From an uncultured virus (IMG/VR IMGVR_UViG_3300000205_000001) (taxonomy: Duplodnaviria; Heunggongvirae; Uroviricota; Caudoviricetes): DNA of 37,180 nucleotides. Shown in pieces: positions 3 through 21,851 of the stretch. The DNA lies in the IMG/VR virus record IMGVR_UViG_3300000205_000001, positions 62,001 to 99,180 of that record; one strand, 5' to 3'. Made by a program: the position numbers and the translations under genes. Numbering within the stretch: position 1 is the first letter of the stretch; every line of letters starts with the position of its first letter. The notes beneath the pieces are model-generated. The model was given only the letters and a program-made list of their open reading frames with translations, did not search any database and was not told the origin of the DNA.

Positions 3-3000
3 ATGCCAAGCTTCGTGAAGACCGAGAAAGACGAAGAGCTGTGGAACAAAGCGAAGGAAATCGTCCAGAAGGAATACAACAAGTCGGAGTCTGACGGAGA
101 CGATTACTGGCGGCTGGTGACAGGCATTTACAAGCGAATGGTCGGCGGTCATGCGGAAAAGTCGATTTACAGCCTGTCAGAGCTGACCCTGTTGAATGGG
201 TACAGCCTTCAAAAGAGCAAAAATAAGTCGTCCGATACCCCCGAGGGGGTACATAAAGACCTGCCTCCGGGTGGTGTGTGGCGCACCATTCGGGGGCATC
301 ACGTGTATATCGTGAACGGAAAGATCGTGGCGGGTTCCGTTCCGCACGTATGGAAAACCGGGCAGTATGTCGCCATGGACAAGGAAACCATGGCGAAGCA
401 CCAGGCAAAGCTGGACGAGAAGGCGGAAAAGGAAACGGCGAAAGCCAAGACCACCAAGAAAACCGCCAAAAAGGCTTCCGAAGAGCCGAAGGAAGAGCCA
501 AAGAAGACCACGAAGCGGCAACCGATGGCGAAGCTGGGCGGTGCTGGGCGTGTGCTGGCAAGTGAGCGAATCGCTCAACTGAAAGAAGCCGCCAAGAAGC
601 ACAAAAACGGCCATGTGGTGGAGAACTGGACAGACAAGCAATGGAGCGACTTCTTCTATGAGCACCGGAAAGCTCCCGTCACCAGCCTTCGCAAGTTTCT
701 TAGTGAGCAGGGAGAATCCAAAAAAGGAGCGGGGAAAGATGCTGAGAAAGCTTCTACGAAAGCTGGTACGAATCGCAAGTCAGCAGGGAAGCCATCCGCG
801 AAATCGAGCGGAGCGAAGAGCGGAAGCAAGAAGGCTTCGGAAGCAAAGACAACAACCACGAAAAACACGAAGAAGCCAAAGTCCGCCACCGGGAACGCCA
901 AGGAACAAATGGCGAAAAACCGGAAGGACATTGACGCTATCGTGAATAGCTCCAACAACCACAAGGCAAATAAGAAGGCGCGGGAGACCACGAAGGAGGA
1001 CATTGAATCCTTCGGGAGTAATCCCAAGGTGAAACAGGGCAAGGGTGCAACCAAGGCAGACTTGGACGCTATGCTTGCGTCAAATCCTCCGAAGAAGAAA
1101 GCAAAGGAGACCACAAGAGCAGACTTGGACGCTATGCTTGGGGAAATGCCGAAGAAAGCCGCTGAACCGAAGACCACCAAGACCGCCAAGAAAGCGAAGG
1201 CGGAAGTCAAAGACATCCGTACCGAAGCCCAAAAGAACCGCGAACTGGCGTATGACGTGGGCGACAAGATTGGCGGCGCACGGAAGGACACCTACCAGCG
1301 CAACTTCTACCTGAATCCAACCCCGCAAGCGCTTCAGGAGTTGGAGCAATGGGCACCGGAGCTGGCACAGGTGGCTTGCCGGAAGGAGAACATTCTGAAA
1401 AAGGTGGACTTCGAAGCGGAGTACAAGCGCGGCACAGATGTGAATGTGGCGTTCCTGAAGCAACTCATCTACGACCGTATCTCGCCGAGACCTTCCGAAG
1501 ACACGCCGGAAGCCCGCATGAAGTACCTGTCCGGCATCCGGGAGCTTCACCGGGTGCTGACACCCATCAAGACGTGGGACGACATGCAGAAGGCAATTCG
1601 TGACCTGTCCGACCTTGCCCGAGCAGGTGCCGGGTTGGCGGAAGCAAAACACCGACTGGCGAACGCCGGACAATACTTCTACCTGAACACGGAATACTAT
1701 CAGGAGAAAGTTCGGAAGGGCGAAGAGGCGAAAGCCAAGCTGGACTTCGAAGCGCTGGGCGACAAGCTGAACAACTTCTTCACCGATTACAAAGCCCGCG
1801 AACGGACGTACAAAACCCTGCTGAGTAAGAAGCTGTCGTGGGACAAGTACTTCAACCCGAACGCTTCCGCTGAACCGGAGAAGCGGAAGGTGGAGCGAGG
1901 GGCACAGAAGAAGCGCTGGGAGCGTCGAGCTGTGGACGAGCATCAGCGCACAGGCGGGCGTGAGACCCCTGTGAAGAAGCCGGAAGACATGGTGAAAGTC
2001 TTCGGCATGAGGGGCGTGGAGTTCGGGCACTGGGTGGACGATGCCGCCGGGCTGTACCACCTGAAGCGCTCCGCTGAGGCTTTCCACGACCTTGCCGACA
2101 TCTTGGGCATGGACGACAAGGATGTGTCCCTGAATGGACGGCTGGCGATTGCTTTTGGCGCACGGGGCAAAGGACGGGCGCTGGCGCATTATGAGCCTGG
2201 CCGCAAGGTTATCAACATGACCAAATACGGCGGCGCGGGTTCGCTGGCGCATGAATGGGGGCATGCGCTGGACAACATCCTCTACCAATACTCCCACGGT
2301 GGCAAAGGCTCCATCTCCATGGCTTCCGAAGGAGACATGGGCGACCATGACCAGAAGCTGAAAGAGCTGTACAACAACCTGATGGAAGCCATTATGAAGC
2401 CCGCTCCGGGCGACAAGGGCGGCACGAAGAAAATCAAGCTGGATTCGTCCAAAAAGCTCTACACCACCTACTACCCGGAAATGCGCCGGGACGTAGAAAG
2501 CGGCATGTCGCCGCAGGACGTGTACACCAAGTGGGCGGGGAAAATCAACAACGACATCGACCGCCAAATTCGGGCGGTGAAGAACAACCCGTTTCGCACC
2601 CCGGCAGACATCGAGAAGCGGGTGAAGGCGTTGGAGCGTCAGCGTACCCGGGAGATGAACGACTTGGCGGGGCGTATCGCCCAAGAGTTTCGCTACAAGA
2701 TGGGCGGGCACAAGACCGGGGAGCACTTCCAAGCGGAAATCGAAGTGCCGACCGGGCACTCCGAATACTACACCCGGATGCAAGAGCTGGACGGAAACGG
2801 CAAGAGCTACTACGCCCAGCCTGATGAGATGTTTGCCCGTGTGTTTGAATCCTACATTGAGGACAAGCTCAACGCCGCCAAGCGCAAGAACAACTACTTG
2901 GTGTGGGACACCAAAACCACCCGTGGTTCGGACGCGCCATTCCCGGTGGACAAAGAGCGCAAGCACATGCACAGCGCCATGGAAGCTCTTCTGAAGTATG

Positions 3001-3779
3001 TCGTCAAAGGCGGGGCGTTGAAGAAAGCGCTGGAGATGGAGCTTCGGAAGGGATATCTCACCTTCAACCATCCGGCGCTGAGTGGGGAAACCAAGCGCTA
3101 CGCTTACCCGGTGGACTGGACACGCGGCACCTACACGGTGGAAGACGTGTTCTATATCCCGGTCAACCGTCTGAACATGGTCTATCAAACCGAAGCCGCC
3201 ACGGACTGGGACAAGGTGAAGGAGAACATGGACAGGATGAGAGCCGGGGAAGCGCTGGAGCCTGTGGTGATTGGCTATGACTACGACATCCATGACGGAC
3301 ACCACCGCTGGTTGGCGGCAAAGGCGCTTGACCACACCCATGTGCCTTGTGTGGTAGGCGGCACGAACGAGCTGGACGTACAGCGGGCGAAAGAGAAGTA
3401 CGCCGAGCTGTGGAAATCCATTATCCCTGACCCAACCGGAACCAGTCCCTTCCCGGAAGACGGCACCATCATGTTCCGGGGCATCGGTCAGCGGGAGCTG
3501 GACTTCATTCGGAAGCACGGCTACATCCAATCGAAGGGCAAAGGCAATGACGACGACAAGGAAGACCGGGAGACGTGCTTTAGCACCACCTTCCGGCAGG
3601 CGGAAGGGTACGCCCGAAGCAACTACGACCTGTACGGAGAGACTGCCGCTTACGTCATTGTCGTGCCAAGACCGCCTTGGGTAGAGGAAGACGAACACGG
3701 GGAGCTGATTGCCCGCCGACCTGTCCCGGTGCACAACGTCACCGCGCTGTTCCCGATTCCGAAGGATGAGCGGGTATGA
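3..3779 (+). CDS. Large polyvalent protein: Lys/Ala-rich N-terminal region, zincin metallopeptidase/LPD1-like domain, ParB/Srx-like domain, C-terminal ADP-ribosyltransferase-like domain
   Basis: 1258 aa ORF. Motifs: DVGDKIGGARKD; RGVEFGHW...LAIAFGARG.G.ALAHYEP...INMTK..GAGSLAHEWGHALD (HExxH at ~2250); YYAQPDEMFARVFESY; ParB-like EPVVI...DGHHRWLAAK...VPCVV (~3150-3360); ART-like FRG...CFST...EHGE (~3465-3776). The start is at the window edge, so an upstream extension is possible. Confidence 0.8.
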   Translation: MPSFVKTEKDEELWNKAKEIVQKEYNKSESDGDDYWRLVTGIYKRMVGGHAEKSIYSLSELTLLNGYSLQKSKNKSSDTPEGVHKDLPPGGVWRTIRGHHVYIVNGKIVAGSVPHVWKTGQYVAMDKETMAKHQAKLDEKAEKETAKAKTTKKTAKKASEEPKEEPKKTTKRQPMAKLGGAGRVLASERIAQLKEAAKKHKNGHVVENWTDKQWSDFFYEHRKAPVTSLRKFLSEQGESKKGAGKDAEKASTKAGTNRKSAGKPSAKSSGAKSGSKKASEAKTTTTKNTKKPKSATGNAKEQMAKNRKDIDAIVNSSNNHKANKKARETTKEDIESFGSNPKVKQGKGATKADLDAMLASNPPKKKAKETTRADLDAMLGEMPKKAAEPKTTKTAKKAKAEVKDIRTEAQKNRELAYDVGDKIGGARKDTYQRNFYLNPTPQALQELEQWAPELAQVACRKENILKKVDFEAEYKRGTDVNVAFLKQLIYDRISPRPSEDTPEARMKYLSGIRELHRVLTPIKTWDDMQKAIRDLSDLARAGAGLAEAKHRLANAGQYFYLNTEYYQEKVRKGEEAKAKLDFEALGDKLNNFFTDYKARERTYKTLLSKKLSWDKYFNPNASAEPEKRKVERGAQKKRWERRAVDEHQRTGGRETPVKKPEDMVKVFGMRGVEFGHWVDDAAGLYHLKRSAEAFHDLADILGMDDKDVSLNGRLAIAFGARGKGRALAHYEPGRKVINMTKYGGAGSLAHEWGHALDNILYQYSHGGKGSISMASEGDMGDHDQKLKELYNNLMEAIMKPAPGDKGGTKKIKLDSSKKLYTTYYPEMRRDVESGMSPQDVYTKWAGKINNDIDRQIRAVKNNPFRTPADIEKRVKALERQRTREMNDLAGRIAQEFRYKMGGHKTGEHFQAEIEVPTGHSEYYTRMQELDGNGKSYYAQPDEMFARVFESYIEDKLNAAKRKNNYLVWDTKTTRGSDAPFPVDKERKHMHSAMEALLKYVVKGGALKKALEMELRKGYLTFNHPALSGETKRYAYPVDWTRGTYTVEDVFYIPVNRLNMVYQTEAATDWDKVKENMDRMRAGEALEPVVIGYDYDIHDGHHRWLAAKALDHTHVPCVVGGTNELDVQRAKEKYAELWKSIIPDPTGTSPFPEDGTIMFRGIGQRELDFIRKHGYIQSKGKGNDDDKEDRETCFSTTFRQAEGYARSNYDLYGETAAYVIVVPRPPWVEEDEHGELIARRPVPVHNVTALFPIPKDERV
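1056..1140 (+). repeat. 22-bp direct repeat inside ORF1 (peptide ADLDAML)
   Basis: gcagacttggacgctatgcttg at 1056-1077 and 1119-1140; a more degenerate KKARETTKEDI unit lies just upstream. Confidence 0.85.
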
Positions 3780-3805
3780 CACTCCTGTTCAAACTTGGAC
3801 AATTT

Positions 3806-3863
3806 TGCTAAAATGAAGGCGACTTAGGCAACGGGTGGACTTCCGAAGTCACCCGTTTGTCTA
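3806..3863 (+). promoter_or_regulatory. Extended -10-like element followed by a leader hairpin capped by CTTCCGAAG
   Basis: TGcTAAAAT at 3806-3814 with no clear -35; hairpin taggca-acgggt-g-gacttc(c)gaagtc-acccgt-t-tgtcta at 3825-3863; RBS AAAGGGGGA before ATG 3887. Confidence 0.45.
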
Positions 3864-3886
3864 TATTGCCGAAAGGGGGAAACCGC

Positions 3887-6800
3887 ATGGAGACAACGAA
3901 GCCGTTCCTGTACATCGACTTATCCAAGGCGTGGCGGGAAGAGTTGCACCCACGGGATAAGTACGGCAGGTTTACCACCGTCAAAGGCGGAAGCCGTGTC
4001 GTGACGAAGACAGGGAAAACAGGGGTAGTCGAAGAAGTTACGGACACCCACTACCACGTCCGCTACGACGATGGGAGAAAAGGCAAGGTAGCGAAGGACA
4101 ACGCTATCCATGTCAATGACCACAAGAAAGTCATGGACGCCCAAAAAGCCGAGAAAGCCAAAGCGAAGAAGCGCAAAGCGGCGGCAGAGAAGGCGAAGAA
4201 GACCAAGGAGCATAACAAGACCAACGCAACCGGGAAGACGGGAGCCGCCAAGCCGCTGAAAGACCCGACCGCGACCGCTCCGAAGAAGGCGGCGAAGAAA
4301 GCTTCCGAGGCGAAAAAAGCTACGGCAAAGGCGGCAAAGCCGAAGAAGCAAAGCCGGGCGAAAGAAGCGCTGAACGCGCCTGTGCTGAAGCGTAACGTGC
4401 GTCATGACACCGAAGACATCCGGGAAATTAAGCAGACCATTCCGCAGAAGAAGGCTTCGGAAGTTCCGAAGAGTGAGCAGAACGAAGCCATCAGGGAATA
4501 CAAGGAAATGGAGACCAAGGGCACTGGCTCCATGAGCAAGCTGGACATGGATTGGAACAGCCACCCGGACGTAAAGCGCATCCTCTCGCAACCTGTCGCA
4601 AAGCGCAACGCAGAGGAAATCCGCCGTGTCGCCGGGGAGATTGCCAACGCCAATGACAAGCTGGCGCGTTCCGTGGTGCTGAAGATGGGCAACGCCCGTG
4701 GTTTGCACTTGGCAAGCCAAGTGAACCGCATCGGCAACAAGGCAACCAATCCGAAGAACGTCATTGTGCAGGAGACCAATTACTACGGGGACATGCTCCA
4801 GTCCGCACGGGCAACCATGTACGAGACGCTTCACAACGTCTTGGCGGGAAGCCAAAATCCGGGCAAGGACACGTCCATTGGCAAGCATGTGGTTCGCCGC
4901 ATGAAGGACAAGCTTCATCGGGACATGTACGCGCTTCTGAACGATATTCCCGCGCCGCATGAAATCCGCGCCGCCATTGGCGACATGCGGAAAGCGGAAA
5001 TGCACCTGACGCAGAAGCTTGGGCGCATCCCGACCAACGAAGAGCTGGGCGCGTACCTGCAAGAGAACTCCAAAGCCTTCCGGGAAGCTCCCATCGTCAA
5101 ACCTCCGAAGTGGGATGAGGCGAAGAACGACTGGGTGGCGACCAAAGAGCGCTACGAAGACCCGGCGGAGCGGCTTCAAGCTCTTCGGAACTATGCAAGC
5201 CAGCAAAAAGCTACGTCTCTTGACCAAAACATTGGTTCCGAAGGAGAGCGGGAAGTCTCCTTGAAGGACAGCATGGCAGACGACTCTCGTAGCCCGGAAG
5301 AGCACGTTCTGAAAAAAGAGCGTCAGTCGGCACTGGAAGACGCAGTTCCGAAGGCGTTCAGCGAATTGGGGCTGACGGACGACGAAATCAAAGTCTTGCT
5401 GACCAAGCATAGCGCACCTTCCACGGCGTCCCCGAGCAAAGCCAGCCTGACGGACGAAGAGACGGCGGAGCAGTTGAACGCCCAGCACGGCATGAAGGTG
5501 GACGGCAAGTGGGTAGCCAACCGCCGCGCTTCCGCCATGAAGAAGCTTCAGCGGGCGCTGGAAGAGAAGCACCCGGCGCTGATGCAACTGCACAGCATGA
5601 TGAAGTCCTTTGCGCTGGCAATGATTTTCAAGGCGCTCTACGAATACGACTTGGTGAAGTCCCTGCATGCGTGGGGCGTAGACCACACGCTTTTGCAACA
5701 GCGCTTTGTTCGGAAGGCAACGGCGCAAGACCGCATCGAGCTGTACAAGTCCTTGGCTCCGCATGAGTACGTAGGTTCCTACGTTACCACCGACGAGGGG
5801 CACATTATCGCCAATGTGGTGGAGTTTGTCCTGCCGGAGACCAACGCCCTGTACAAGTCCTTCAATGCGTTCATGAGCGGGATTCAGAAGTCCATGTTTG
5901 CTCACAAAGGCAAAAACCACGAAGTCAACAAAAAGGCTTCGGAGTACGTGAAGGCGAATTCGGGAAAGTACCAAGCCCTAGCCAACAGCCAGCAGGAGCG
6001 CGTGAAGCAGAAAAAGAGTAGTGGCAAAGCGCTCACATGGTCTGAAGAACTCCTGCTGAAAAATCCCGGTACGTGTTGGATTACATGGGGCGGAAAGAAA
6101 ATTCTGATTCACGGAAGTACCGGGGAAATCAAGTACGACTCCGCGAACGAAGCACACCGCGAAGAGCACAACCAAGGCGCACAGGAAGAGAAAATCGACT
6201 TCCACCATGAACGGGAAGCCTTGGAAGAGCACGAAAGCGAAGCGGAGAAACGTGCCTTGGAAGCGTGGGAAAAGGAAGGGAAGAACCTGAAAGGGAACTT
6301 CCGAACCAAGTTCCTCCGTGACCACCGCCTGACGGAAAACGAAGACGGCACGGTAACCTTCAACCGCCATCAGGATGTTTCGGAAGACAACCGCCACCTG
6401 ATTGACCATGGCATCCGGGCGTTCCATGAGGAAATGTCCAAGATGAAAAGCGACTGGGACAAACTCCACGCCGCCATGAAGGAAGAGAACAAGCACAAGG
6501 TAACGAACCACTACGCCGACATGAGCGAAGAGGAACGCGCCGAGTACGACAAGCTCTCCAGAGAGGAACAGGCGATTGCGACCGGAAACCACCTGCTGGA
6601 TAAGGAAGGCGTACTTGACCGCCTGAAGCGGTTCCATGACGAAGCCCAAGGGAAGTCCAAGGAAGAGCAAGCCCAGCTTGCAGAAGAACTTCTGAATGAC
6701 CTGAAGGGTATGGAGCACGGCTCCATGGCGTTGGTCAACAAGAAAATCATGCTGGGCGGCGGTGCGAACTTGGCGGGTATCGCTGGGGCGCTTCTGGAGT

Positions 6801-8586
6801 ACGACCCGACTTCCGAAGAGGGAAGGAAGGAAATCGCCAAGCGGATTGGCACTTCCGAGCTTGCCCGCGCCAACGAAGAAGCTGGAAAAAACCTGATTGC
6901 AGAAGGCAAGTACCTCATCGGCAACCCGCTCACCGGAAAGACCATGGTGGTGCACGTAGGACACGCCTTCGAAGGCGGGCGCGGCGGACGTGGCGGCAAG
7001 CTGGCTCCAGTCATTAAGGAGGCGTTCGACCCGGAAGGCGGACAGCACGAAGACCTGCAAAGCTGGGGCGGTCTCGCCCGGGCGCTGGGCTTCAAAAACG
7101 AGAAGGGCAACACGGCTGACCTGAAAAAGCTCATCATCGACAGCGCCAACAAGGACGCCAACAGCCCGATGGTCAAACCGCTTTCCGAAGACGAATACCT
7201 GAAGCACCGCGCCAACACGAAGCTGGGGCTTCAGGAGACCATGCTCCACAAGGAGTTTAAGCTGGTCAATCAGTCCCGCGACGACAAAGGCAATATCACC
7301 AGCCAAACCTTCGCACAGAAGATGCCGGATGGAACCGTCAACCACATCACGGTGGACGGAGAGGGCTACATTCAAGACCCGCTGATGAGACGCCTTTTGA
7401 ACCAACGGAAGCCCGTGACCAATGAGAAAGAGCTGAACGAACTGCTGAAAAACGCTGTCGGCAACCGCCGATGGGTAACGGCTCACTTCGGAAGCGACAT
7501 TCACATTGGTGACGCGCTGGGGCACCACATCCTGCTGGAGTATGACGGCAAAGGCGCTCCCCGGGTAGTCGGCGGGAAGTACGATGGGTACCGCTACATC
7601 GACGCCGCAGACGTTCCGAAGGGTGCCATCGACCCGGCGACCGGGGAACCTGTGAAGGCGCTGTTCAAAAACGGCAAGCTGGTAGACCGCCGCTTCACCA
7701 CCATGAACGAAGTGCCGATGGAAGTGGGCAATGCGGTCTTGTACCCAACAGGAAACGGCACCTTCCGAAAAGGACGCATCCATTCCGAAGTCGAAGGCGG
7801 CTTCAAGATTACGGACGGCAAAGGGCACGTCATTGGCGTGTTCAAGAAATCCGAACTGAAGCCTGCCAAACAGGAGGGGCGCATCCTCTCCGAGAGCGGT
7901 CAGGTTGTGGTGGACACGCACCAAGAGGGCGTCCACCGCATGAACGTGGATGAAGCGTTCAAGCCTGCCAGCGATAAGAAGCGGGACATTGCCCGGGCAG
8001 AGAAAGCCAAGGCGCTGTTCGCAGAAGCCCTTCGGAAGGCGAAGGTGAACAAAGCCTTTGACGAAGAGGGCAACCTGAGAAGCGACTTGGAGCTGTCTGA
8101 CCCGATGATGAGGCGGCTTCAGAAGGTACTGGGACGCTCCAAGGCGGGGCGCGAGATGCTTGCGAAGTTCAGCACGACCAAGCTCCCGGCAACGCTCAAA
8201 ATCCATGTGCCGGAAAGTCAGCGCTCCACAGTGGAGCAGTACGGCGTCACCGTCCGGGCAGACGGCACGGCGACCATCTCCCCGGCGAAGTTTGAAGAGC
8301 TTCGGGAAGCACTGGGCGGGTTGTCGCTGACACACCGGGCGCAGGAGATGCTTCAGGAGCACTTCCAGCGCAAAGACCGCACCCCGAAGACGGTGGAAGA
8401 GCTGAAGCAACGCTACCAGCCTTCCCAAGTGCCCAACAAGGGAGAGGGAAGCTTCGGGTACCACTATCAGCAACAGTTCAAGCCGAACAGCTTCCTGATG
8501 GACGCCAACAAGGGCTTGTACGGAACCCAGTTGGAAGGCGTGGCGCACATGATTGAGCGCGGAAGAGTGGTTGTTGGACACGGGAT
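3887..8586 (+). CDS. Exon 1 of a giant polyvalent protein (HPRxxxGRF motif, KOW/SH3-like, sigma-70-like r2-r4, second KOW-like, start of SNF2 helicase)
   Basis: ATG 3887 has a strong RBS (the track start at 3857 is less likely). Motifs: LHPRDKYGRF; sigma-like LTQKLGRIPTNEELG, TSLDQNIGSEGEREVSLKDSMADD, LTDDEIKVL...LTDEETAEQL...ASAMKKLQ. Ends LYGTQLEGV...VVVGHG-AT, the first half of helicase motif I. Confidence 0.8.
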
Positions 8587-9478
8587 TAACCTACACACTT
8601 GCCATGACCTTACCCGTCTGGTAGCATAGGGGTAAGGAGATGGTAGAAAATGGCGGCTTTTATGGAATGTAATGAAGAGGCATATTACTGGCTTGGGGTT
8701 CTGTTCGCAGACGGTGCCGGAAATTACCCGGATTACCGCCTATGCTTAAAATCCAAACATGCGAACTTTATTCAAGCGTTTGCAGACTACGTAAGTAAAC
8801 CCGTGAAAACGGGAATGGGAATGGGCGCAAGAAGTGTCGTGTATCGGGTAGACTTCTACAGCAAAGAGATTCGGCTACGTCTGATTGAATTAGGGTACAC
8901 CGTTTCTCGTAAAGCAGATAGGGCATTACCTGAAATTCCACCGAGTATGGTACGACACTTTCTACGCGGGTACTTTGACGGAGACGGTAGCATTCACAAA
9001 GACCGTCGGAAGCCGAATTGTTGGAGACTTGAATGGTGCGTACATAAGTCGGCTTCCGAAGCGATAAAACATCTTCTCGAAGTACACTGTCCGAGTGCGA
9101 ACGTACGGCTGTATGATAAAAAGTCAGTGGATTGCCTTATGATCTACAATTCCGAAGGGGTGCAGGAAGTTCTTCGTTTCTTATACGAAAATGCTTCCGT
9201 GTGTCCACACCCCAAGGTAAAAGCGCCAGGTGTGCAGTCCCTTGTAGAAGGAATTCTACAAGCAAAGCGGGTGAATTCGGTGAACGCCTAAGTCCGAGAG
9301 GATATGGCAACACCGAGCCAAGCCGAAGGGCACCTTCGGAAGGTGTAACGACTACTGGAGGGGTTAGTCCCCTTAATAACCAGCAGGAGCGCCCGCCATC
9401 CAGAACGGATGATGATATAGTCTAGTCCGGCTGTTAGCTACCGACAGCACAAATATCCCGAAAGGGACGGTATAAACG
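8587..9478 (+). mobile_element. Group I self-splicing intron with homing endonuclease inserted in the P1 loop
   Basis: 5' exon ends in U (GGGAU, 8586) and pairs with internal guide GUCCC (9237-9241). P2 is cttgtagaa-ggaa-ttctacaag (9241-9262). Core elements: gcgggtgaattcggtgaa, aacaccgagccaagc, gtaacgact, gcgcccgcc, gatgatatagtct. Terminal G at 9478. Splicing restores in-frame GHG-M-GVGKT. Confidence 0.92.
8650..9291 (+). CDS. Intron-encoded LAGLIDADG homing endonuclease (two-motif)
   Basis: YWLGVLFADG and HFLRGYFDGDGSI motifs; RBS AAGGAG at 8634-8639; lower GC than flanking exons; 3' end runs into the intron core. Confidence 0.9.
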   Translation: MAAFMECNEEAYYWLGVLFADGAGNYPDYRLCLKSKHANFIQAFADYVSKPVKTGMGMGARSVVYRVDFYSKEIRLRLIELGYTVSRKADRALPEIPPSMVRHFLRGYFDGDGSIHKDRRKPNCWRLEWCVHKSASEAIKHLLEVHCPSANVRLYDKKSVDCLMIYNSEGVQEVLRFLYENASVCPHPKVKAPGVQSLVEGILQAKRVNSVNA

Positions 9479-11687
9479 GGGAGTAGGTAAAACCATCACA
9501 GGTGTCGTGGCAGGGCTTCACTACAAAGCGCAAAAGCTGGCGAACGGGGAGAAGCCGAAGAAAACGCTCATCGTGGCTCCGAAGGGCATCATGTCCGACT
9601 GGGGCAAGGAGATTGGCAACCACACCACCGCGAAGGCGCTCTACATCGGGAACGGCTTGACCAAGAAGGGCGTAGACGGCAAGGTAATGAAGCATGAGAA
9701 CGGGCGCAACCTGTGGGGACAGGACGGCACCGAGCAGGAAGCGGTCAGCGCGAAGTCCTTCCTGAAGAACTTGGAGAAACACGCTTCCGAAGACCACGAC
9801 TTCCACATCGTCAGCTACGACACCTTCATGCGAAACCGGGAGCACTTCGCCAACAGTGGCATGTACGACAACATCGTGATTGACGAAGTTCACGCCTTCA
9901 AGAATCAGAAGGGCAAGCGTGGTCAATCGCTGGCGGAGACCACGGACAAGTTCAAGAATGTGTGGGGCTTGTCGGGTACGCCGATGGAAAATGATGCACG
10001 GGAAGTCTGGAGCCTTGTGGACACTATCACAGGCGGCAAGCATGAGCTGGGGACGCTGAAAGAGTTCCAAGACAAGTTCATGAAGAAGGACAAAAACGGC
10101 AAGCTGGTAGGCGTGAAGCCGGAGATGGCGGAGAAGCTGGGCGACATTCTGGCGAACATCGTGCAGTTCCGAAGCGGGGCAGACGTGACCTACAACGATG
10201 GAAGCAAAATCGAGTTTCCGCACCTTGTGGGCGCTACGTCTCCTGACCAGCCGAACCCGAAAGTGGACTTCATCGGCAACATGGTTGACCGAAGCCGCGA
10301 CCACGCCACCACGGACTACTACGGCACGAAGCACAGCGTCACCGACTTCGAAGCGGGCACCAAGACGGTCACTTCAAAGAACGGCGAGACCTACGAAGTG
10401 CAGACCTTCACGCCGAAGAACCTTGACCCGGCTACCGAAGCCATGTACAACACCTACCGACAGCTTCAGGCGAAATACCTGCCGGAAAGCAAGCTGAACG
10501 AACTGGCAAGCGCCGCCGCTTCGGGCTTCGACCAAGCAGGCAACCGGAGCGACAAGTCCAACTACCTGACCGCCATGCAAAAGCTTCAGAAGTTCCTGAA
10601 CGCTCCCTTGGCGCACAAGATGTACGTGCCGGGCGGCAACGCCATTGAATCGGATGAGACGGATGCCCAATCCGAGACGCCGCAGAGCGACAAGGGCGGC
10701 GGGCTGAAGCCGTACGACCCGAAGACGGGCGAAGGGCACTACATCATCGACGAAAACGGGTTCAAGCGCTACTTCGAATCGGACGGGCAAGGCGGATTTA
10801 AGCGGAACCCGGATGGAAGCCCGAGACTCCTGCCGCCGCTCCACGAAGACAACCCGAAGGCGCAATACCTGAAAAAGCGCATCAATCAATACCTGTCTTC
10901 GCTTCAGAAGGAGAACCGGGAGCGTGTCGCCCGTGGCGAAAAGCCGCTGGTGCCGAAAGTCGTTGTGAAGTCCTCCTACACCACCTTCGGAACCGACATC
11001 GTGGATAACGTCCTGAAGGAGATTCGCAACACGCACCCCATCTTCCGTGACCTTGCCGAGCATGGGTACACCGACCTTGGACAGGGGCGTTTCACCGGGG
11101 ACGCTGACGACCGGGAGCAGACCAAAGTGGGCTTCCGTGGCAACAAGAAGGACTACCTGAACAACCAAGGCAACCTGTGGGCAACGACCGTTTCCCCGGC
11201 GGGTAAGGAAGGTGTAGACTTCGGAAACGCGCACATCATGTTCCACTACGACCAAGACTGGAACCCGCAGAAGATGGCGCAGTTTACCGCCCGGGTGCGC
11301 CGCTCCGACTCTGCCACCACCCACGTCCAAGCAGGGCGGGCAAACGCCGTGCGCGTGGAATCCCTGCACATGCCGGGAACCGTGGAAGACTTCATGTTCA
11401 ACGCCCAAGACAGTAAGATGGCAAGCATCAAGCAAGTCACCGACAACACCCGCATGGCAGAACGGAATCCAAAGCTGGGTGAGACGGAAAGCAGGCTGGG
11501 CTACGGACACCGTGGATTCACCAGCCGGAAGCATCCGGGAGCCAAACCGAAGGCTCCGACCACCGTTCAGAAGCCGACTCAACCTGTTCAGACCCCGGCT
11601 CCCGGACGGGCAGGCAACGATAGTGTCCTTCCGAAGAAGGCGGCGGCACAGGCTGACAAAGCTTTGAAACTGGTGATACTCTTGTAA
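9479..11687 (+). CDS. Exon 2 of the giant protein: SNF2/SWI2-family helicase
   Basis: GVGKT, TLIVAPKGIMSDW (Ia), IVIDEVH (II), LSGTPMEND (III), SPAGKEGVDF (V), DQDWNP..MAQFTARVRR (VI). Exons of 4700+2209 nt give 2302 aa plus stop. Confidence 0.9.
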
Positions 11688-11700
11688 TAAGGCAAGACAA

Positions 11701-11729
11701 AAGGGCTTCTTCGGAAGCCCTTACTTTTC
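11701..11729 (+). terminator. Probable intrinsic terminator with C(UUCG)G loop
   Basis: aagggcttc-ttcg-gaagccctt followed by acttttc, just after the helicase stop. Confidence 0.7.
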
Positions 11730-11747
11730 ACAAAGGAGTGACCGGGC

Positions 11748-12038
11748 ATGGCAGAAAGAATGTTCGACCAAGATTCGTTTCTGGAGGAAATCCAGACACC
11801 AGCGGACGCGAGAGCTTGCGTGGATTACTTGGCGCACAACGAGCACCAATTCTTAGAAGAGCTTCGGAACGAAGGACTTTCTTACGAAGAACGGCAAGAA
11901 GCCCTTAGACAAGTGTGGACAAACTTGATAAAATCAGCACAGAGGGTTGGATATTTTGACCACTTGCTGGAGAACAAAGCCAAGCAGTTCGGAGTTGGTG
12001 TGAATCGAGCGTTGCCATACTTCAAAGGCAAAAAGTAA
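11748..12038 (+). CDS. Hypothetical protein (96 aa)
   Basis: RBS AAGGAG, ATG, co-oriented with neighbours; no recognisable motif. Confidence 0.7.
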   Translation: MAERMFDQDSFLEEIQTPADARACVDYLAHNEHQFLEELRNEGLSYEERQEALRQVWTNLIKSAQRVGYFDHLLENKAKQFGVGVNRALPYFKGKK

Positions 12039-12060
12039 GCTTCGGAAGGGGGGTGAGGGG

Positions 12061-12264
12061 ATGCTGAATTGTCCTGAGTGCAACCGAATCATCATGGATT
12101 CCACCAGTGACGGTGGGTGGAAGCTTCGTTCCCGCATGGTGCTGTTCCATGGCGGAAAAGCGGAAGCGCTGTGCCCGACCTGCAAGACACGGGTGGAGGT
12201 TCCTGTTCTGCTTGGCGACATCGGCAACCCGCCTCCGAAGCCCAAAATCGTGGTGAAATCGTAA
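12061..12264 (+). CDS. Small zinc-ribbon protein (Mu Com-like architecture)
   Basis: 67 aa with CPEC...CPTC; RBS GGGGGTGAGGGG. Confidence 0.7.
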   Translation: MLNCPECNRIIMDSTSDGGWKLRSRMVLFHGGKAEALCPTCKTRVEVPVLLGDIGNPPPKPKIVVKS

Positions 12265-12273
12265 AATTCCGTA

Positions 12274-12303
12274 TTGACCATCTTCGGAAGAAGATGGTAA
12301 TAT
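12274..12303 (+). promoter_or_regulatory. Sigma-A-like promoter with an inverted repeat filling the spacer
   Basis: TTGACC (12274) - 18 nt - TAATAT (12298) with TG extension; inverted repeat accatcttc-ggaa-gaagatggt at 12277-12298. Confidence 0.5.
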
Positions 12304-12346
12304 GCTTTTTGAACAAGCCAATAACGAACTTCGGGCAACGAAGTCC

Positions 12347-12469
12347 AGTAAACAAGGACAGCCCAAGACGTTAAAACACGCCATGGCAAGGTTTCCTACC
12401 AGCTCTAACCTACCATGGGTGTATCGAGCGGCACAGCCGTTCGAGCGTCTTGCGCTGTCCTTGTTTGCT
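12347..12469 (+). ncRNA. Putative structured RNA (three-way junction) in the leader of the prohead protease gene
   Basis: 26-bp closing stem 12347-12372/12444-12469 (1 mismatch, 2 G-U pairs) enclosing hairpins 12376-12422 and 12425-12443. Confidence 0.55.
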
Positions 12470-12480
12470 ACAGAAGGGTG

Positions 12481-14127
12481 GTGAGTGAGTTGGAAAACAC
12501 GCCTACCGATGTGCTACAGGGCGACACCTACCACGTATGGGTTCCTATCGAAGACACCGACCTTCTGAAGTCCGTTCAAGTGGATGAAAACGGCGACTAC
12601 ATTGTTCAGGGTGTCATGACTTCGGACGAAGTGGACGAAGAGAATGACTCCATCGACCCGGAAGGAATGGACTGTTCGTACTTCCTGACCAAAGGCTGGA
12701 TTAAGTACGAGCACGGAAACAACCCGAACCAGTTCATCGGAGAGCCGCTGGAGGTAAAAGTAGGGCGCTTCGAGCACCCGACTCTCAAAAAAGCGGTGAA
12801 TGGCATCTTCGTCAAAGGACGGCTGTTCGCCAATCGGGAGCTTGCACGGCAGGCGGTACGCGCCATCCAAGACCTTCAGAAGTCCAACACCAAGCGAAGA
12901 ATGGGTTGGTCTATCGAAGGCAACGTCAGAGAGCGTTGCCGCCGAACTGGGAAGATTCTGAAGTCCGTTCTTCGGAACGTGGTCTTGACCATGAACCCTG
13001 TAAACACCATGACATGGGCGGAGCTGGCAAAGTCCTTTGCGAAGAACCATGAAGTGGAAGTCAACATGGAGCTGGACAAGTCCATGGACACCGGGGCGAT
13101 TGCGGAACTCATGCCACAATCCATTGAAGGCTACGACCCCGAAAAAGACCCACAGGAAAAGTGGATAAAGCTGTTTCGGAAGTTCGTGGCAGAAAACGGG
13201 CTGAAGAAGTCCCTGCGTGACAGGTTCGTAACCAGCACCAGCGGCGAAGCGGGCATCGGTGCCTACCAGTTCGCAAGACGCGAAGGGCTGGATTATGAAG
13301 GAGCGGTTGAATTCGCTTCTTATATTGCCGACAGGCATGAAATCCTAAAATCCCTTTTCGGGAAATTCGGGGGTGAAAACATGGAGAAGAACGCAAGCAC
13401 GTTGGCAAGTCTGTTAGACACGGACTTGGAAGAGTTGAAGAAGTCCTTGGAGTTGGACGAAGAGGACGACTTGGAGCTGGAGGAAGAGCTGAACAAGTCC
13501 ATGGACGGTGACCAAGATTCTGACGACTCCGAAGACGAGGACGATGCAGAAGATGAGGACACCGAAGAGGACGACTCCGACGAGGACGAGGACGAAGACG
13601 GCGACTCCGACGAGGACGAAGAGGTAGAGAAGTCTTACAAGACGGAACTCACCAAGTCCTTGGCAAAAGAGCATGGACAAGCCTTCGAAGTCTCCGACTT
13701 CCTCACCGCCCTGACCGATGAAATTGGCTTCGGTCTGGAAGGGCTTCAGAAATCCTTGGGGCATGTGACCAAACAGCAAAACGCCATTGTGAAGACGCTG
13801 GCTTCCATGGGTGAGCTGGTGAAGTCGCTTGCCGGAGAACTTCAGCAAGTCCGCGCTGAAAACGCCGAGCTTCGGAAGTCATTGGGTGACGTTCTGGAAC
13901 GTCCTGTCGGACGCAAGAGCGTTGTCAACCAACGCGAAGTCACCACGCTTACCAAATCCATGGGAGCTGGACAACCACTGACACGCGCTCAAGTTGAAGA
14001 CGTGTTGGTGAAGTCTTTTGAAGCTGGGGAGTTGAACGGTTCCGAAGTTATCCGCTGGAACGCTGGCGTACCGCTGGAACAGCTCAACCTTCCTGACAGC
14101 GTGAAATCCAAACTGGGCTTGCTGTAA
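12481..14127 (+). CDS. Prohead protease fused to scaffold protein
   Basis: VQGVMTSDEVDEENDSI, IKYEH, GWSIEG, VVLTMNPVN are phage prohead-protease-type motifs; acidic tract and coiled-coil C-terminus; directly upstream of the capsid gene. Start uncertain (GTG 12481 or TTG 12490). Confidence 0.85.
   Translation: MSELENTPTDVLQGDTYHVWVPIEDTDLLKSVQVDENGDYIVQGVMTSDEVDEENDSIDPEGMDCSYFLTKGWIKYEHGNNPNQFIGEPLEVKVGRFEHPTLKKAVNGIFVKGRLFANRELARQAVRAIQDLQKSNTKRRMGWSIEGNVRERCRRTGKILKSVLRNVVLTMNPVNTMTWAELAKSFAKNHEVEVNMELDKSMDTGAIAELMPQSIEGYDPEKDPQEKWIKLFRKFVAENGLKKSLRDRFVTSTSGEAGIGAYQFARREGLDYEGAVEFASYIADRHEILKSLFGKFGGENMEKNASTLASLLDTDLEELKKSLELDEEDDLELEEELNKSMDGDQDSDDSEDEDDAEDEDTEEDDSDEDEDEDGDSDEDEEVEKSYKTELTKSLAKEHGQAFEVSDFLTALTDEIGFGLEGLQKSLGHVTKQQNAIVKTLASMGELVKSLAGELQQVRAENAELRKSLGDVLERPVGRKSVVNQREVTTLTKSMGAGQPLTRAQVEDVLVKSFEAGELNGSEVIRWNAGVPLEQLNLPDSVKSKLGLL
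13381..14127 (+). CDS. Probable nested in-frame scaffold protein
   Basis: Internal RBS GGGGGTGA then AAAC-ATG at 13381, the same RBS style as other genes; D/E-rich and coiled-coil sequence with many LxKS motifs. Confidence 0.65.
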   Translation: MEKNASTLASLLDTDLEELKKSLELDEEDDLELEEELNKSMDGDQDSDDSEDEDDAEDEDTEEDDSDEDEDEDGDSDEDEEVEKSYKTELTKSLAKEHGQAFEVSDFLTALTDEIGFGLEGLQKSLGHVTKQQNAIVKTLASMGELVKSLAGELQQVRAENAELRKSLGDVLERPVGRKSVVNQREVTTLTKSMGAGQPLTRAQVEDVLVKSFEAGELNGSEVIRWNAGVPLEQLNLPDSVKSKLGLL

Positions 14128-14157
14128 GCCTAATTTCAAAGAAGGGGGTATACGAAC

Positions 14158-15630
14158 ATGGAAAACCTGATTAACGGTTTCGGTCAGTCTTCCGTACAAG
14201 AGCTGGAAGAGTTGAATAAAGCCCTTGGTACTGGTACGGAAGGCGAAGCCTACGGTGGCGGGGCATTCGCTGATATGTCCGCGCTCCGTCCGCAATCTCT
14301 CGAACCTACCCTGAAGATTGTGACGGCACAAGAGCAACACATCAAATTCTGGAAGTCCATCGGCAAGAAGCAAGCGTTCAACACCGTTGAAGAATTCAAC
14401 GTGCTGGACAGCTACGGTGGAAACTCTTCGCCGTTCTTCGTTGAAGGCGGTCTGCCGAACGAAGAGGACAGCAACTACATCCGTCAATCCCAAATGGTGA
14501 AGTTCCTTGGTACGACCCGCGTGATTACGCACCCGGCTACCTTGGTTCGCAACACCGTTGGGGATATCGTCGCCCGCGAGACCATGAACGGTACGCTGTG
14601 GCTCCTGCAACAACTGGAGCGGGCGCTGTACTTTGCAGACGAATCGCTTGACCCGCTGGCGTTCAACGGCGTTATTGCCCAAGTGAAGAAATTCGTGCAG
14701 GGCAAGCCCTACGAATCCCAGCACATCATCGACATGCGCGGCGAACCGCTGGATGAGAACACGCTGGAAGACATTGCGACCATCATTGCTGACAACTACG
14801 GCTCTCCGAAGCTGGAACTGCACCTGACGAACCAAGTCCACAAGGACTTCTCCAAGCTGATTACGGGCAACGGCGGGCGTCAGCGCGTCATGATGAGCGG
14901 CAACCCGGGTGACATTCGCCTTGGTCAACCTGTGCGCGGGTACAGCGCAAACGTGGCGGACATCGACTTCGTGAACAACATCTTCCTGAAGCCCGACACC
15001 GCTCCGAAGGCTGTATCCCAAAAAGGCGCTCCGGCTGTTCCGACTCTGCCGGGCACGGGCGCACTGGTGGCTACGGACGACAGCACTTCGAAAATGGATG
15101 CTGGCACCTACCACTACTTCGTGAGCGCGAAGAACTCCAATGGCGAGTCTGCACCCGTTCACGTTGGTTCCGTGGCAGTAACCTCCGGTCAACGTGTGGA
15201 CATCACCATCAACAAAGTGGTAACCGACCCGGTAGCGAAGTCCTACCGCGTATACCGTGGTTACACTTCCAACGCTTCCGAAGCGCTGTTTGCGTTCGAA
15301 GTTCCGGCTGAATCCGGCTCCGGCACTCAAACCATTGCCGACCGCAACTTCGACATCCCGGGCACGGACACGGCGGTTCTCATCGACAACGACCCTGAAA
15401 ACGTGCTGTGCTTCAAGCAACTGGCACCGCTCATGAAGCTCCCGCTGGCACGTATCTCCGCTTCCGAGCGCTTCATGATTCTGCTGTACGGTATGGTTCA
15501 GGTATACAACCCGCGCCGTATCGTCGTCGTGAAGAACATCGGCAAGCTGGGCATCAACAGCAACCGTGAACTGTTCAACCCGTCCTACGGCGCTGACAGC
15601 TTCGGTACCATCAAACCTGTACAGGGCTAA
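14158..15630 (+). CDS. Major capsid protein (SPO1/Twort-like type)
   Basis: 490 aa; ALRPQSLEPTLK..T, FWKSIGKKQAFNTVEEF, LAPLMKLPLA; N-terminal LNKA candidate processing site; follows protease/scaffold. Confidence 0.9.
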   Translation: MENLINGFGQSSVQELEELNKALGTGTEGEAYGGGAFADMSALRPQSLEPTLKIVTAQEQHIKFWKSIGKKQAFNTVEEFNVLDSYGGNSSPFFVEGGLPNEEDSNYIRQSQMVKFLGTTRVITHPATLVRNTVGDIVARETMNGTLWLLQQLERALYFADESLDPLAFNGVIAQVKKFVQGKPYESQHIIDMRGEPLDENTLEDIATIIADNYGSPKLELHLTNQVHKDFSKLITGNGGRQRVMMSGNPGDIRLGQPVRGYSANVADIDFVNNIFLKPDTAPKAVSQKGAPAVPTLPGTGALVATDDSTSKMDAGTYHYFVSAKNSNGESAPVHVGSVAVTSGQRVDITINKVVTDPVAKSYRVYRGYTSNASEALFAFEVPAESGSGTQTIADRNFDIPGTDTAVLIDNDPENVLCFKQLAPLMKLPLARISASERFMILLYGMVQVYNPRRIVVVKNIGKLGINSNRELFNPSYGADSFGTIKPVQG

Positions 15631-15699: not shown

Positions 15700-16086
15700 A
15701 TGGTGAAAGTGAAGAAAACCTTTGGGGAGTACCCAATCAACACGGTTGTGCTGAACAAGGTGGTGTCGTTTGACGAAAACGGGGAAGCGGAGGTATCCGA
15801 AGAGTTAGCCAACGTGCTGGCGAGAATCCCGGGCTACAAGGTGGGGCTGGACGAAGCGCCGAAGGCGAAAGCACCGAAAGCACCGGAAGCTCCGAAAGCA
15901 CCGGAAGCTCCGAAGGCACCGGAACCGGAAGCCCCGGCTGAAGAGGAAGCTCCTGCTGAAGCCGAAACGGAAGAGACTCCCGCCGAAGAGGAAGCTCCGG
16001 CTCCGAAGGCTCCCGCCGCGCCGAAGGCTCCGGCTCCGAAGGCTCCGAAAAAGCCTGCCGCCCCGAGGGTTCCTGCAAAAGAATAA
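15700..16086 (+). CDS. Hypothetical head-associated protein with Pro/Ala/Lys/Glu-rich tail
   Basis: RBS AAGGAG; small N-terminal domain then repeated APKAPE units. Confidence 0.7.
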   Translation: MVKVKKTFGEYPINTVVLNKVVSFDENGEAEVSEELANVLARIPGYKVGLDEAPKAKAPKAPEAPKAPEAPKAPEPEAPAEEEAPAEAETEETPAEEEAPAPKAPAAPKAPAPKAPKKPAAPRVPAKE

Positions 16087-21350: not shown

Positions 21351-21851
21351 ATGTCGCAACCTATCGGAAATGAAGCGAACCTTGCCAAAGTGAGACAGCT
21401 TATGGCGCAAAACCAGCAAGTGCAACAAGGCGGGAACATGACCCACGGGATTTTTATTGATTACGTCTCCCAGGAAGGAAACCACTACACGGGCACTGTG
21501 GTGGTGAAGCGCCCCACCGTCATGGACTACATGAAGATGGGTGGTCTCAAATCGGAGTACTTGCGCCAAGCAGGGGTGCAGGACGCCAACCTTGTGGACG
21601 ATACTGTGAAAATTCTGGCGCATGCTTTGGCTACGCTGAAAGTCGTCGTTGTAAAGTGCCCGGAATGGCTCATGGACATGGACAACATTAGGGAAATTGA
21701 CGTTCTCTACCACGTCTTCGATAAGTACGAGGAATGGGATTACTCCTTTCGCAAACCAGTTCAGGCAGAACCTATCGGAGCTGGCGAAGCTTCCGAGTCA
21801 GCGGGAGCTGTGGATACTTCGGAAGTTTTACGGGAACCTGCCGCCGACTGA
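21351..21851 (+). CDS. Tail assembly chaperone (G-like)
   Basis: Between tube and tape measure; YTGTVVVKRPT, ATLKVVVVKCPEW. Confidence 0.75.
   Translation: MSQPIGNEANLAKVRQLMAQNQQVQQGGNMTHGIFIDYVSQEGNHYTGTVVVKRPTVMDYMKMGGLKSEYLRQAGVQDANLVDDTVKILAHALATLKVVVVKCPEWLMDMDNIREIDVLYHVFDKYEEWDYSFRKPVQAEPIGAGEASESAGAVDTSEVLREPAAD

Follow-up and report, generated by a model that had tools for sequence, protein, structure and literature searches.

The DNA studied here, referred to below as the window, comprises 37,180 nucleotides (positions 62,001 to 99,180 of the IMG/VR record IMGVR_UViG_3300000205_000001) and forms the final part of a 99,180-bp contig from an uncultured virus of the Caudoviricetes. 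The window covers the head and tail genes of an uncultured 99-kb myophage whose capsid and prohead protease are of the SPO1/K/A511 (Herelleviridae) type, and all real genes in it lie on the + strand. Two giant open reading frames (ORFs) upstream of the prohead protease gene, ORF1 and ORF2, encode multi-domain proteins that carry, near their N-termini and at domain junctions, the same short Lys-Ser/Ala motif that fills the scaffold. We propose that both proteins are packaged into the capsid and cut at their domain junctions by the prohead protease, a model to which we assign a probability of about 0.65; that ORF1 and ORF2 are capsid cargo is likely. An original prediction, made from the letters of this DNA alone, had put forward this scheme, and every motif that it listed in ORF1, ORF2, the protease-scaffold and the capsid protein was found at its place.

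The Lys-Ser/Ala motif in scaffold, capsid and tail proteins

The proteins that define the motif are encoded by the following features (the arrow marks the predicted cleavage position throughout).

12415-14127, + strand: prohead protease fused to scaffold, 570 amino acids (aa); phrog_1028 head maturation protease, E = 3.9e-41 (aa 41-208); phrog_15087 scaffold, E = 1.8e-8 (aa 324-540)
14158-15630, + strand: major capsid protein; phrog_752, E = 8.9e-82
14212-14223, + strand: candidate capsid maturation site, L19-N-K↓A22 (ELNK↓A)

The motif was defined as [LIVM]xK[SA], and expectations for the window were obtained from 2000 shuffles of each protein. The protease-scaffold, which had been described as full of the motif, holds 17 matches against 1.25 expected, a count that none of the 2000 shuffles reaches. 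For the narrower pattern [LIV]xKS the figures are 16 and 0.61 (again 0 of 2000 shuffles), and a Ser follows 18 of the 40 Lys residues of this protein. By manual count, 11 of the 17 sites stay in register across four sequences (the window and three independent relatives, 53-74% identity), and the x position of these sites changes, e.g., LKKA, LRKS, LGKS and LDKS. The capsid protein carries the LNKA that had been read at its N-terminus; EL[NQ]K↓A-[LM] is kept in the relatives L001-L004 and in Chryseobacterium phage MA9V-3 (ELQK↓AMQA), and the counterpart in the SPO1-like phage SPO1L5 is ALNK↓ALEA. The His and Ser motifs of the protease, YEHGNN and GWSIEG, align with FDHDNS/GFSVEG in SPO1L5, YEHQSD/GFSIEG in phage 812 and WNHQAR/GFSIEG in MA9V-3, which suggests that the aligned His and Ser are the catalytic residues. 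The protease-scaffold gene itself may start at a GTG or TTG near 12478-12511.

The 20 ORFs of the tail module (6,895 aa) together contain 13 matches versus about 12.0 expected (summed expectations). A stricter pattern, [ED][LIVM]xK[SA][LMFIV], adds the flanks of the scaffold sites; it occurs 14 times in six head-module products (protease-scaffold 9, capsid 1, ORF1 2, ORF2 2) and is absent from the 20 tail ORFs. The first exon of ORF2 (see below) has 13 matches to the basic motif where 5.08 are expected (p = 0.002), and the homologues of both cargo candidates exceed their composition in sum: 367 matches versus 199 expected for ORF1 homologues (20 of 52 individually at p <= 0.05) and 469 versus 234 for ORF2 homologues (26 of 35).

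The residues at P4 and P2' lie outside the search pattern. An acidic P4 (Glu or Asp) occurs in 28/48 scaffold sites, 44/103 sites of a cluster in ORF2 and 82/175 ORF1 junction sites, and a hydrophobic P2' (Leu, Met, Phe, Ile or Val) in 42/48, 101/103 and 144/175, respectively. The 13 tail matches show an acidic P4 in 2/13 and a hydrophobic P2' in 3/13, which is background level. We regard [LIVM]xK↓[SA] as very probably the site of the prohead protease. Cleavage most likely takes place after the Lys of [LIVM]-x-K↓[S/A, sometimes G], with an acidic P4 and a hydrophobic P2' preferred.

Conserved sites at the domain junctions of ORF1

ORF1 and its parts are as follows.

3..3779, + strand: ORF1, polyvalent cargo candidate of 1258 aa, with 87 homologues listed
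207..218, + strand: site L69-Q-K↓S72 at the end of the N-terminal module
2250..2264, + strand: HEWGH (HExxH) of the core, a zincin-like candidate active site
3018..3029, + strand: site L1006-K-K↓A1009 at the core/ParB junction
3138..3386, + strand: ParB/sulfiredoxin-like domain (aa 1046-1128); phrog_26754 ParB-like nuclease, E = 5e-36; Foldseek ParB/Noc, E = 3e-4
3408..3419, + strand: site L1136-W-K↓S1139 at the ParB/ART-fold junction
3417..3776, + strand: ART-fold module (aa 1139-1258), from Foldseek fold similarity, with no Pfam match

The protein starts with an N-terminal module of 71 aa, followed by a basic Lys/Ala/Thr-rich stretch with a PPGGVWRTIRG module, the LPD1/HExxH core, the ParB-like domain and the ART-fold module. 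LPD1 is recognized by Pfam (PF18796, E = 1.7e-16, 60.5 bits vs a cutoff of 27), and precomputed Pfam annotations place it in 85 of the 87 listed homologues; the core also shares 42% identity with "LPD5 domain-containing" proteins of Stx phages. ORF1 belongs to the polyvalent proteins as described by Iyer et al. (2017). In a 20-sequence alignment (A2), HEWGH reaches a conservation of at least 90%; Pfam adds a weak match to Peptidase_M13 (E = 0.068), and it is for this invariant HExxH alone that we call the core a peptidase. The ADP-ribosyltransferase (ART) label comes from fold similarity: the Foldseek matches are enterotoxin A1 chains, Tpt1/KptA and CC0527 (E = 6e-4 to 1e-2). Pfam returned no family for the N-terminal module (72 aa searched), for the ART-like module or for a six-site domain of ORF2 described below. 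In the homologue P0076 the counterpart of the N-terminal module ends in LQK↓A.

Conservation of motif positions, which had been named beforehand as a check, was found at both ORF1 junctions among 53 aligned homologues of 38-100% identity. Of these, 50/53 have the site after the core (G-A-L-x-K↓A-L), with Lys, Gln, Glu, Thr, Ala or Arg at P2. A second site follows 10-20 residues later in 40/49 homologues, and at least one site lies in the core/ParB junction in 53/53. The site at the end of the ParB domain (E-[LVI]-W-K↓S) falls into two split alignment columns, 16/17 and 26/49, that is, about 42/53. Per 100 aa, the motif reaches a density of 3.3 in the two junctions, as against 0.32 in the core, 0.02 in the ParB domain (a single match in 4,113 residues from 52 homologues) and 0.45 in the C-terminal modules. 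Control motifs that have Arg or Glu at the Lys position occur at 0-0.15 per 100 aa in the junctions. AlphaFold2 (AF2) modeling of residues 985-1258 places K1008 immediately ahead of a stretch with a predicted local distance difference test score (pLDDT) below 50 (model residues 30-46) and K1138 exactly where another such stretch begins (model residues 154-166). Both Lys residues mark the starts of low-confidence linkers between confidently modeled domains. The support from ORF1 comes from the conserved position of its sites and not from their number.

ORF2, one gene split by a group I intron

The features of ORF2 are listed in the order in which they occur.

3887..8586, + strand: ORF2 exon 1 (aa 1-1566), with an inferred exon end
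3920..3931, + strand: leader site L12-S-K↓A15; N-terminal column 24/30
4574..5602, + strand: sigma70-like module (aa 230-572); Pfam Sigma70_r3, 26.7 bits vs a cutoff of 25.3, over 29 residues only
5597..5893, + strand: six-site cluster (Lys 573, 582, 591, 621, 657 and 668) in an alpha/beta domain directly after the sigma-like module
8030..8041, + strand: site L1382-R-K↓A1385, in 29/31 homologues with variable P2
8587..9478, + strand: group I intron of 892 nucleotides; Rfam RF00028 at 9209-9444, 67.8 bits vs a gathering threshold of 50, E = 1e-16
8650-9291, + strand: LAGLIDADG homing endonuclease ORF inside the intron; Pfam LAGLIDADG_3
9479..11687, + strand: ORF2 exon 2, SNF2-type helicase; Pfam SNF2-rel_dom, E = 6.4e-20; colinear with uninterrupted homologues

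Read from its sequence, ORF2 is a single 2302-residue gene split by a group I intron. The intron interrupts the Walker A motif of the SNF2 domain, and the inferred splice 8586/9479 restores GHGMGVGKT as well as an open frame of 2302 aa; 30 of the 36 ORF2 homologues lack the intron and run uninterrupted over more than 2100 aa (lengths listed: 2202-2361). The start is probably the ATG at 3887, which matches the gene call of the collection (P0001), with the N-termini of homologues beginning nearby. ORF2 had been read as a protein with a sigma domain and a helicase: both modules are there, but the helicase turns out to be the second exon beyond the intron. Exon 1 encodes a leader, an HPRDxxGRF and SH3/Tudor-like part, a basic stretch, the sigma70-like module, the six-site alpha/beta domain, about 900 aa that we could not assign, and the start of the SNF2 domain; about 1,000 residues of unassigned domains separate the sigma-like module from the helicase. 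The AF2 model of the sigma70-like module has a pLDDT of 75.7, and its top 50 Foldseek matches in PDB are all of the sigma70 family (E = 6e-5 to 1e-3), with TM-scores of 0.13-0.16 over 310-355 columns.

Positions in ORF2 were followed in up to 31 aligned homologues. Its N-terminus reads METTKPFLYIDLSK↓A. Nine sites are conserved with a free P2, namely the N-terminal one, [IL]PK↓A at 489 (22/31), the six at 573-668 and the one at 1384. The six sites of the cluster recur in 26, 26, 31, 31, 31 and 30 of 31 homologues, respectively, with variable P2. Eight motif columns of ORF2 are at least 80% conserved, versus 0-2 such columns for seven control motifs.

Helicase exon 2, when compared with isolated phages, matches only generic helicases (24-28% identity). 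A sigma70-like module and an SNF2 ATPase, both RNA-polymerase-associated activities, occur here in one likely cargo protein. The six-site domain was also considered as a diverged copy of the scaffold, which we reject on sequence: BLASTP of this domain against the protease-scaffold gives chance-level matches only (E = 1.3 or worse). Its best score in the ESM Atlas is 0.82, below a meaningful level.

Both proteins contain low-complexity stretches rich in Lys, Ala, Thr and Pro, at aa ~130-400 of ORF1 (~390-1200) and aa ~85-190 of ORF2 (~4140-4460). An ORF of 128 aa after the capsid gene (15700-16086) carries a repeat of the PKAPEAPKAPE type. These stretches may be DNA-binding or spacer segments.

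Leader sites and moving cassettes

A motif within 25 aa of the start was found in 30/36 ORF2 and 29/53 ORF1 homologues, versus 6/108 ORFs genome-wide, and several of the ORF1 homologue sequences lack their N-terminus. The typical leader of ORF2 homologues is M-x-T-T-[KR]-P-F-L-Y-I-D-L-x-K↓[SA] and that of ORF1 homologues M-L-I-D-L-N-x-x-D-L-[IV]-K↓[SA]. By eye, several further ORF1 homologues (e.g., P0047, P0053, P0066, P0078, P0079 and P0082) have the same leader with K↓G. Where its homologues have this short leader, ORF1 of the window has the 71-residue module ending in LQK↓S.

This module also exists on its own. In the 94-kb relative G001 it heads a separate gene of ~460 aa (MPEFVRTEKDE...SLMK↓S; L008, G001:C1:2862-4409), and the ORF1 homologue of the same genome begins without it, so that the module is known both fused and free. 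Other modules change their place together with their sites. The ART-fold module, C-terminal in ORF1 of the window, is N-terminal in P0061, P0068 and P0069, between the leader site and a second site, and a site-flanked cassette of 70 residues sits in the core/ParB junction of P0047 and in the ParB/ART junction of P0052. The HPRDxxGRF and SH3-like opening of ORF2 also begins several ORF1 homologues. Among ORF1 and ORF2 homologues (P0001-P0089), W-R-E-E-L-H-P-R-D-x-x-G-R-F (3932-3980 in the window, ORF2 aa 16-31) lies 6-11 residues after a site in 57 of its 62 occurrences; given this position, a module released by cleavage would have it as its new N-terminus. As arguments for cleavage sites, the free P2 and the moving cassettes outweigh the counts over homologues.

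The motif in phages without such cargo and in a Thermus phage

The motif also marks scaffolds in phages that show no ORF1-like or polyvalent cargo gene nearby in the regions inspected (SPO1L5, phage 812 and MA9V-3). A plain count gives 10 matches in the 252-aa scaffold of SPO1L5, where Ser follows 11 of 21 Lys residues; the scaffold of phage 812 has 7 matches vs 1.0 expected (0/500 shuffles reach 7), and the protease-scaffold fusion of MA9V-3 has 14 vs 1.42 (0/500 shuffles). Capsid chains of the 812 type are deposited in PDB with 463 aa (5lii) and 439 aa (9row), with an alignment offset of 24, and residues 22-25 of the phage 812 capsid read VVK24↓S25. The deposited mature chain thus appears to begin right after the Lys of the motif. 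The capsids of A511 and K are reportedly cut at a Lys-Ser bond; our literature search found no paper stating Lys↓Ser cleavage for A511, K or Herelleviridae. The accessible portions of PMC5923470 and PMC3601020 give no cleavage site.

MA9V-3 was considered as an independent test for cargo and set aside: its giant upstream protein has 1 match and looks, by eye, like a repeat-rich, fibre-like structural protein. In the same phage, a 148-aa protein encoded just before the portal (L011 5238-5684) has three LxK↓S within residues 21-41, a number reached in 0/500 shuffles, and is a candidate for a small cargo or core protein.

A distant parallel comes from a cultured phage, Lalka27a of Thermus, whose DarB-like gp2 and 1715-aa helicase Lvh are virion proteins by peptide mass fingerprinting according to the portion of the preprint available (bioRxiv 10.64898/2026.04.20.719267). 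Its capsid lineage is homologous, "Thermus 5" being among our capsid matches. Gp2 begins MDLVRLYQELLAK↓A and Lvh carries LLAK↓A at residue 80; the Lalka27a protease has 4 matches vs 0.46 expected and the scaffold 3, mostly [LIVM]AK↓A. The likeness of these sites points to a local site flavour common to scaffold and cargo. Lvh was tried as an orthologue of ORF2 and rejected, as it lies among tail and baseplate genes and gives no tblastn match, and serves as a distant parallel only.

A model for processed capsid cargo, and its alternatives

In the model that we favour, a short N-terminal leader would take each cargo protein into the procapsid along with the scaffold, the 71-aa module ending in LQK↓S standing in for it in ORF1 of the window. 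Once active, the protease would degrade the scaffold at about 17 places and trim 21 residues off the capsid protein; it would also strip the leaders from the cargo and cut the cargo at the sites in its domain junctions. The released pieces, i.e., the HExxH/LPD core, the ParB-like domain, the ART-fold domain, the sigma-like factor and the SNF2 helicase part, would remain in the head and exit with the DNA.

Several observations weigh against this model. The predicted enrichment of the motif in head over tail proteins holds for the protease-scaffold and for ORF2 and fails for ORF1, which has 4 matches where 3.70 are expected (p = 0.51). Some matches look like chance, being unconserved (MQKA 528 in ORF1; VPKS 193, MRKA 367, VRKA 608 and VNKA 1387 in ORF2), and a tenth ORF2 match, VVK↓SS in the helicase, is found in 29/30 homologues with an invariant P2 and may be structural. 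The cluster of ORF2 does lie directly after the sigma domain, where it had been placed, but it is not the loose border that had been imagined: its domain is confidently folded (pLDDT 79-93), with three of the Lys residues inside helices (353, 362 and 428, model numbering), and is thus not an obviously accessible linker. Counts over homologues are not independent events, since homologues share ancestry, and tblastn of the central region of ORF2 against isolated phages gave 0 matches. The start of the mature 812-type capsid is deduced from PDB chain length and alignment offset alone. Giant cargo is packaged uncut elsewhere, as described in the available text for the virion RNA polymerase (vRNAP) of phage N4 (PMC5512222) and for P1 DarB at 251 kDa (PMC9024508), and the HExxH of ORF1 could itself do the cutting. 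Finally, recruitment of ORF1 and ORF2 to the scaffold core, their cutting and their entry into the cell are suggested by analogy with T4 and P1.

One alternative keeps the packaging and removes the leader alone, the large multi-domain bodies staying whole or nearly so, as in N4 vRNAP and P1 DarB; the motifs of the junctions and of the cluster would be uncut or partly cut, and would be contacts with the scaffold, the protease or the capsid interior, or helix ends. The confident fold around the ORF2 cluster, with its three helical Lys residues, agrees with this, as do the reports that N4 vRNAP is packaged unprocessed (PMC5512222, available part) and that DarB, at 251.4 kDa, is among the P1 virion proteins and needs only its N-terminal 30 residues for packaging (PMC9024508, likewise). 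Uncut junctions do not account for the linkers of low confidence that begin at the ORF1 sites, for a motif about 10-fold denser in junctions than in domains, for P4 and P2' preferences shared with the scaffold sites, or for the sites that flank every shuffled cassette, and we consider it unlikely that cleavage stops at the leader. As for the six-site domain, it may be cut only after unfolding or may use the motif for something else.

It is less probable still that ORF1 cuts itself in cis and ORF2 in trans through its zincin-like HExxH domain, and that the likeness to the scaffold motif is coincidental or convergent. The conservation of HEWGH speaks for such an activity, and Iyer et al., in the part of their paper available (PMC5512222), propose that the metallopeptidase acts by autoproteolysis, either before packaging or after it. 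Yet ORF2, which has no HExxH, has a leader site among its nine conserved sites, and in SPO1L5, phage 812 and MA9V-3, with no ORF1-like protein near in the inspected regions, the motif fills the scaffolds and occurs at the capsid N-termini; the mature 812-type chain, moreover, begins after VVK. Least probable of all, and in our view very improbable, ORF1 and ORF2 would be late cytoplasmic enzymes of replication, transcription or anti-defence that are never packaged, their motifs stemming from a Lys/Leu/Ser-rich composition and ancestry: the low information content of the motif and its expected number in ORF1 fit this idea, but not the positional conservation with free P2 as compared with control motifs, the excess of leader sites over the genome-wide ORFs, the missing strict motif in the tail proteins, the location of the genes between a MuF-like gene and the protease gene, or the membership in Pfam LPD1, a family established from proteins for which delivery alongside the DNA is predicted.

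Relation to known systems

The nearest functional counterpart of the favoured model, in which cargo is packaged and then cut by the prohead protease, is phage T4 with its internal proteins IPI-III and Alt and its protease gp21. There too, by the available accounts, an N-terminal tag ends in the protease's own site, which is I/LxE in T4 (PMC5512222, PMC9024508, PMC12991175), and the scaffold core is cut at many copies of one site, as we propose here. Packaged T4 enzymes, among them an ADP-ribosyltransferase, are injected with the DNA according to the same partial sources; for the window, injection is a proposal from sequence. The differences are that gp21 cuts after Glu whereas the protease here is of the SPO1/K type (phrog_1028) with Lys at P1, and that the cargo here consists of multi-domain proteins of 1258 and 2302 residues with extra sites between domains. 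Given another protease family and another P1 residue, the system would work like that of T4 without being a member of it.

With the polyvalent proteins of Iyer, Burroughs, Anand, de Souza and Aravind (2017), ORF1 and ORF2 share LPD1, the HExxH core and ParB, ART-fold and SWI2/SNF2 modules joined in one polypeptide, as well as genes beside those for portal and MuF proteins and a predicted delivery with the DNA (PMC5512222, available text). That source differs in assigning processing to the proteins' own metallopeptidase, and to assemblin-like virion-assembly peptidases only where these are C-terminally fused; its accessible text contains neither "sigma" nor "linker" and maps no cleavage motif at junctions. 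Our literature search found no paper that ties junctions of polyvalent proteins to prohead-protease sites. What we judge, on balance, to be new here is the application of a T4-type scheme of protease-processed capsid cargo to polyvalent proteins.

In phiKZ the cleavage consensus is S/A/G-x-E. The inner-body and ejection proteins of phiKZ and SPN3US are comparable in that many are head-internal, enter the cell and are cut by the prohead protease at a short consensus, as far as the available text goes (PMC7411985, PMC10052503). They differ by a T4-like protease with Glu at P1 and by cargo that comes mostly as separate genes rather than as shuffled polyproteins. The Dar system of P1 (DarB, DdrB and DarA) shares a giant methylase-helicase head cargo that an N-terminal signal shorter than 30 residues is enough to package (PMC9024508, in part); in contrast, DarB is listed with its full size, cleavage of the P1 capsid falls at E120↓S121, and the accessible part of that source describes no junction sites. 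The Herelleviridae (SPO1, Staphylococcus phage 812/K and Listeria phage A511) share a homologous capsid and protease and [LIV]xK↓S in scaffold and capsid N-terminus, but encode protease and scaffold in separate genes and have no polyvalent cargo genes in the inspected regions.

Polyvalent proteins are widespread in phages and conjugative elements, and their loading and activation have so far been guessed to proceed through self-cleavage by the metallopeptidase. Cut sites that can be read from sequence and are tied to the head-maturation protease would instead predict the fragments and their new N-termini. For this capsid lineage they also offer a rule for finding cargo, namely an N-terminal tag and sites with acidic P4 and hydrophobic P2', and the leader is a candidate for a portable address tag with which foreign proteins could be loaded into capsids. 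A Lys-specific code would extend the few known specificities of prohead proteases, which mostly have Glu at P1 in T4-like phages, and ORF2 would offer the first example of likely virion cargo that includes a sigma-like factor.

More tentatively, and with clear reservations, these elements can be read jointly, as exchangeable cassettes bounded by sites and addressed by tags, a sigma-like factor delivered with an SNF2 ATPase, and a six-site domain acting as a latch or scaffold mimic. Each cassette would then be bounded by Leu-x-Lys↓Ser and addressed by an N-terminal tag of 12-18 residues; having its own sites and tag, it could switch from one polyprotein to another, or turn into a gene of its own, without losing its loading and release. 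Delivery of the sigma-like factor with the SNF2 ATPase would let the phage reprogram the host RNA polymerase from the moment of entry, with no need for a virion RNA polymerase. The six-site domain, as a protease-triggered latch or a scaffold mimic, would keep the protein in the core up to maturation.

Genomic context and neighbouring genes

The gene order on the + strand is TerL fragment, PhoH, portal (PF04860), MuF-like minor head protein, ORF1, ORF2, a 96-aa ORF, protease-scaffold, major capsid protein and tail genes. The genes from the TerL fragment to the MuF-like protein lie upstream of the window in the same contig (portal: PF04860, E = 1.4e-15), and the genes 3' of the capsid gene encode a contractile tail (sheath, tube, chaperone, tape measure and baseplate). 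A DNA search against 50,697 phage records returned just short matches of 2-3% to an acidic repeat and no close cultured relative. At the protein level, tblastn with the protease matched 760 phage records, mainly of Staphylococcus (342), Bacillus (243), Enterococcus (69) and Listeria (55), and the capsid protein matched SPO1 Gp6.1 (PDB 9vel, E = 1.8e-68) and the 812-type major capsid protein (E = 7e-24); a sequence search of PDB with the protease domain gave no meaningful match.

The upstream match to TerL consists of a single 349-aa ORF (G000:C1:54853-55902; L014 854-1903) that covers profile positions 255-553 of 576, i.e., the C-terminal half, and the gene may be split as well, e.g., by another intron. 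Several neighbouring head genes carry the motif: the portal protein (G000:C1:58424-60187) has EELLK↓A at residues 16-21, the portals of SPO1L5 and MA9V-3 have 2-3 sites each near the N-terminus, and the MuF-like protein (G000:C1:60389-61735) has 4 matches vs 1.5 expected (p = 0.05). The 96-aa ORF between ORF2 and the protease gene (11748-12038), for which no family match was found, has one site, NLIK↓SA, and could be a small head-internal protein. In the tail module, the tube gene is followed by two overlapping ORFs (21351-21851 and 21697-22089), the first of which matches tail assembly chaperones, an arrangement that fits the usual frameshifted chaperone pair.

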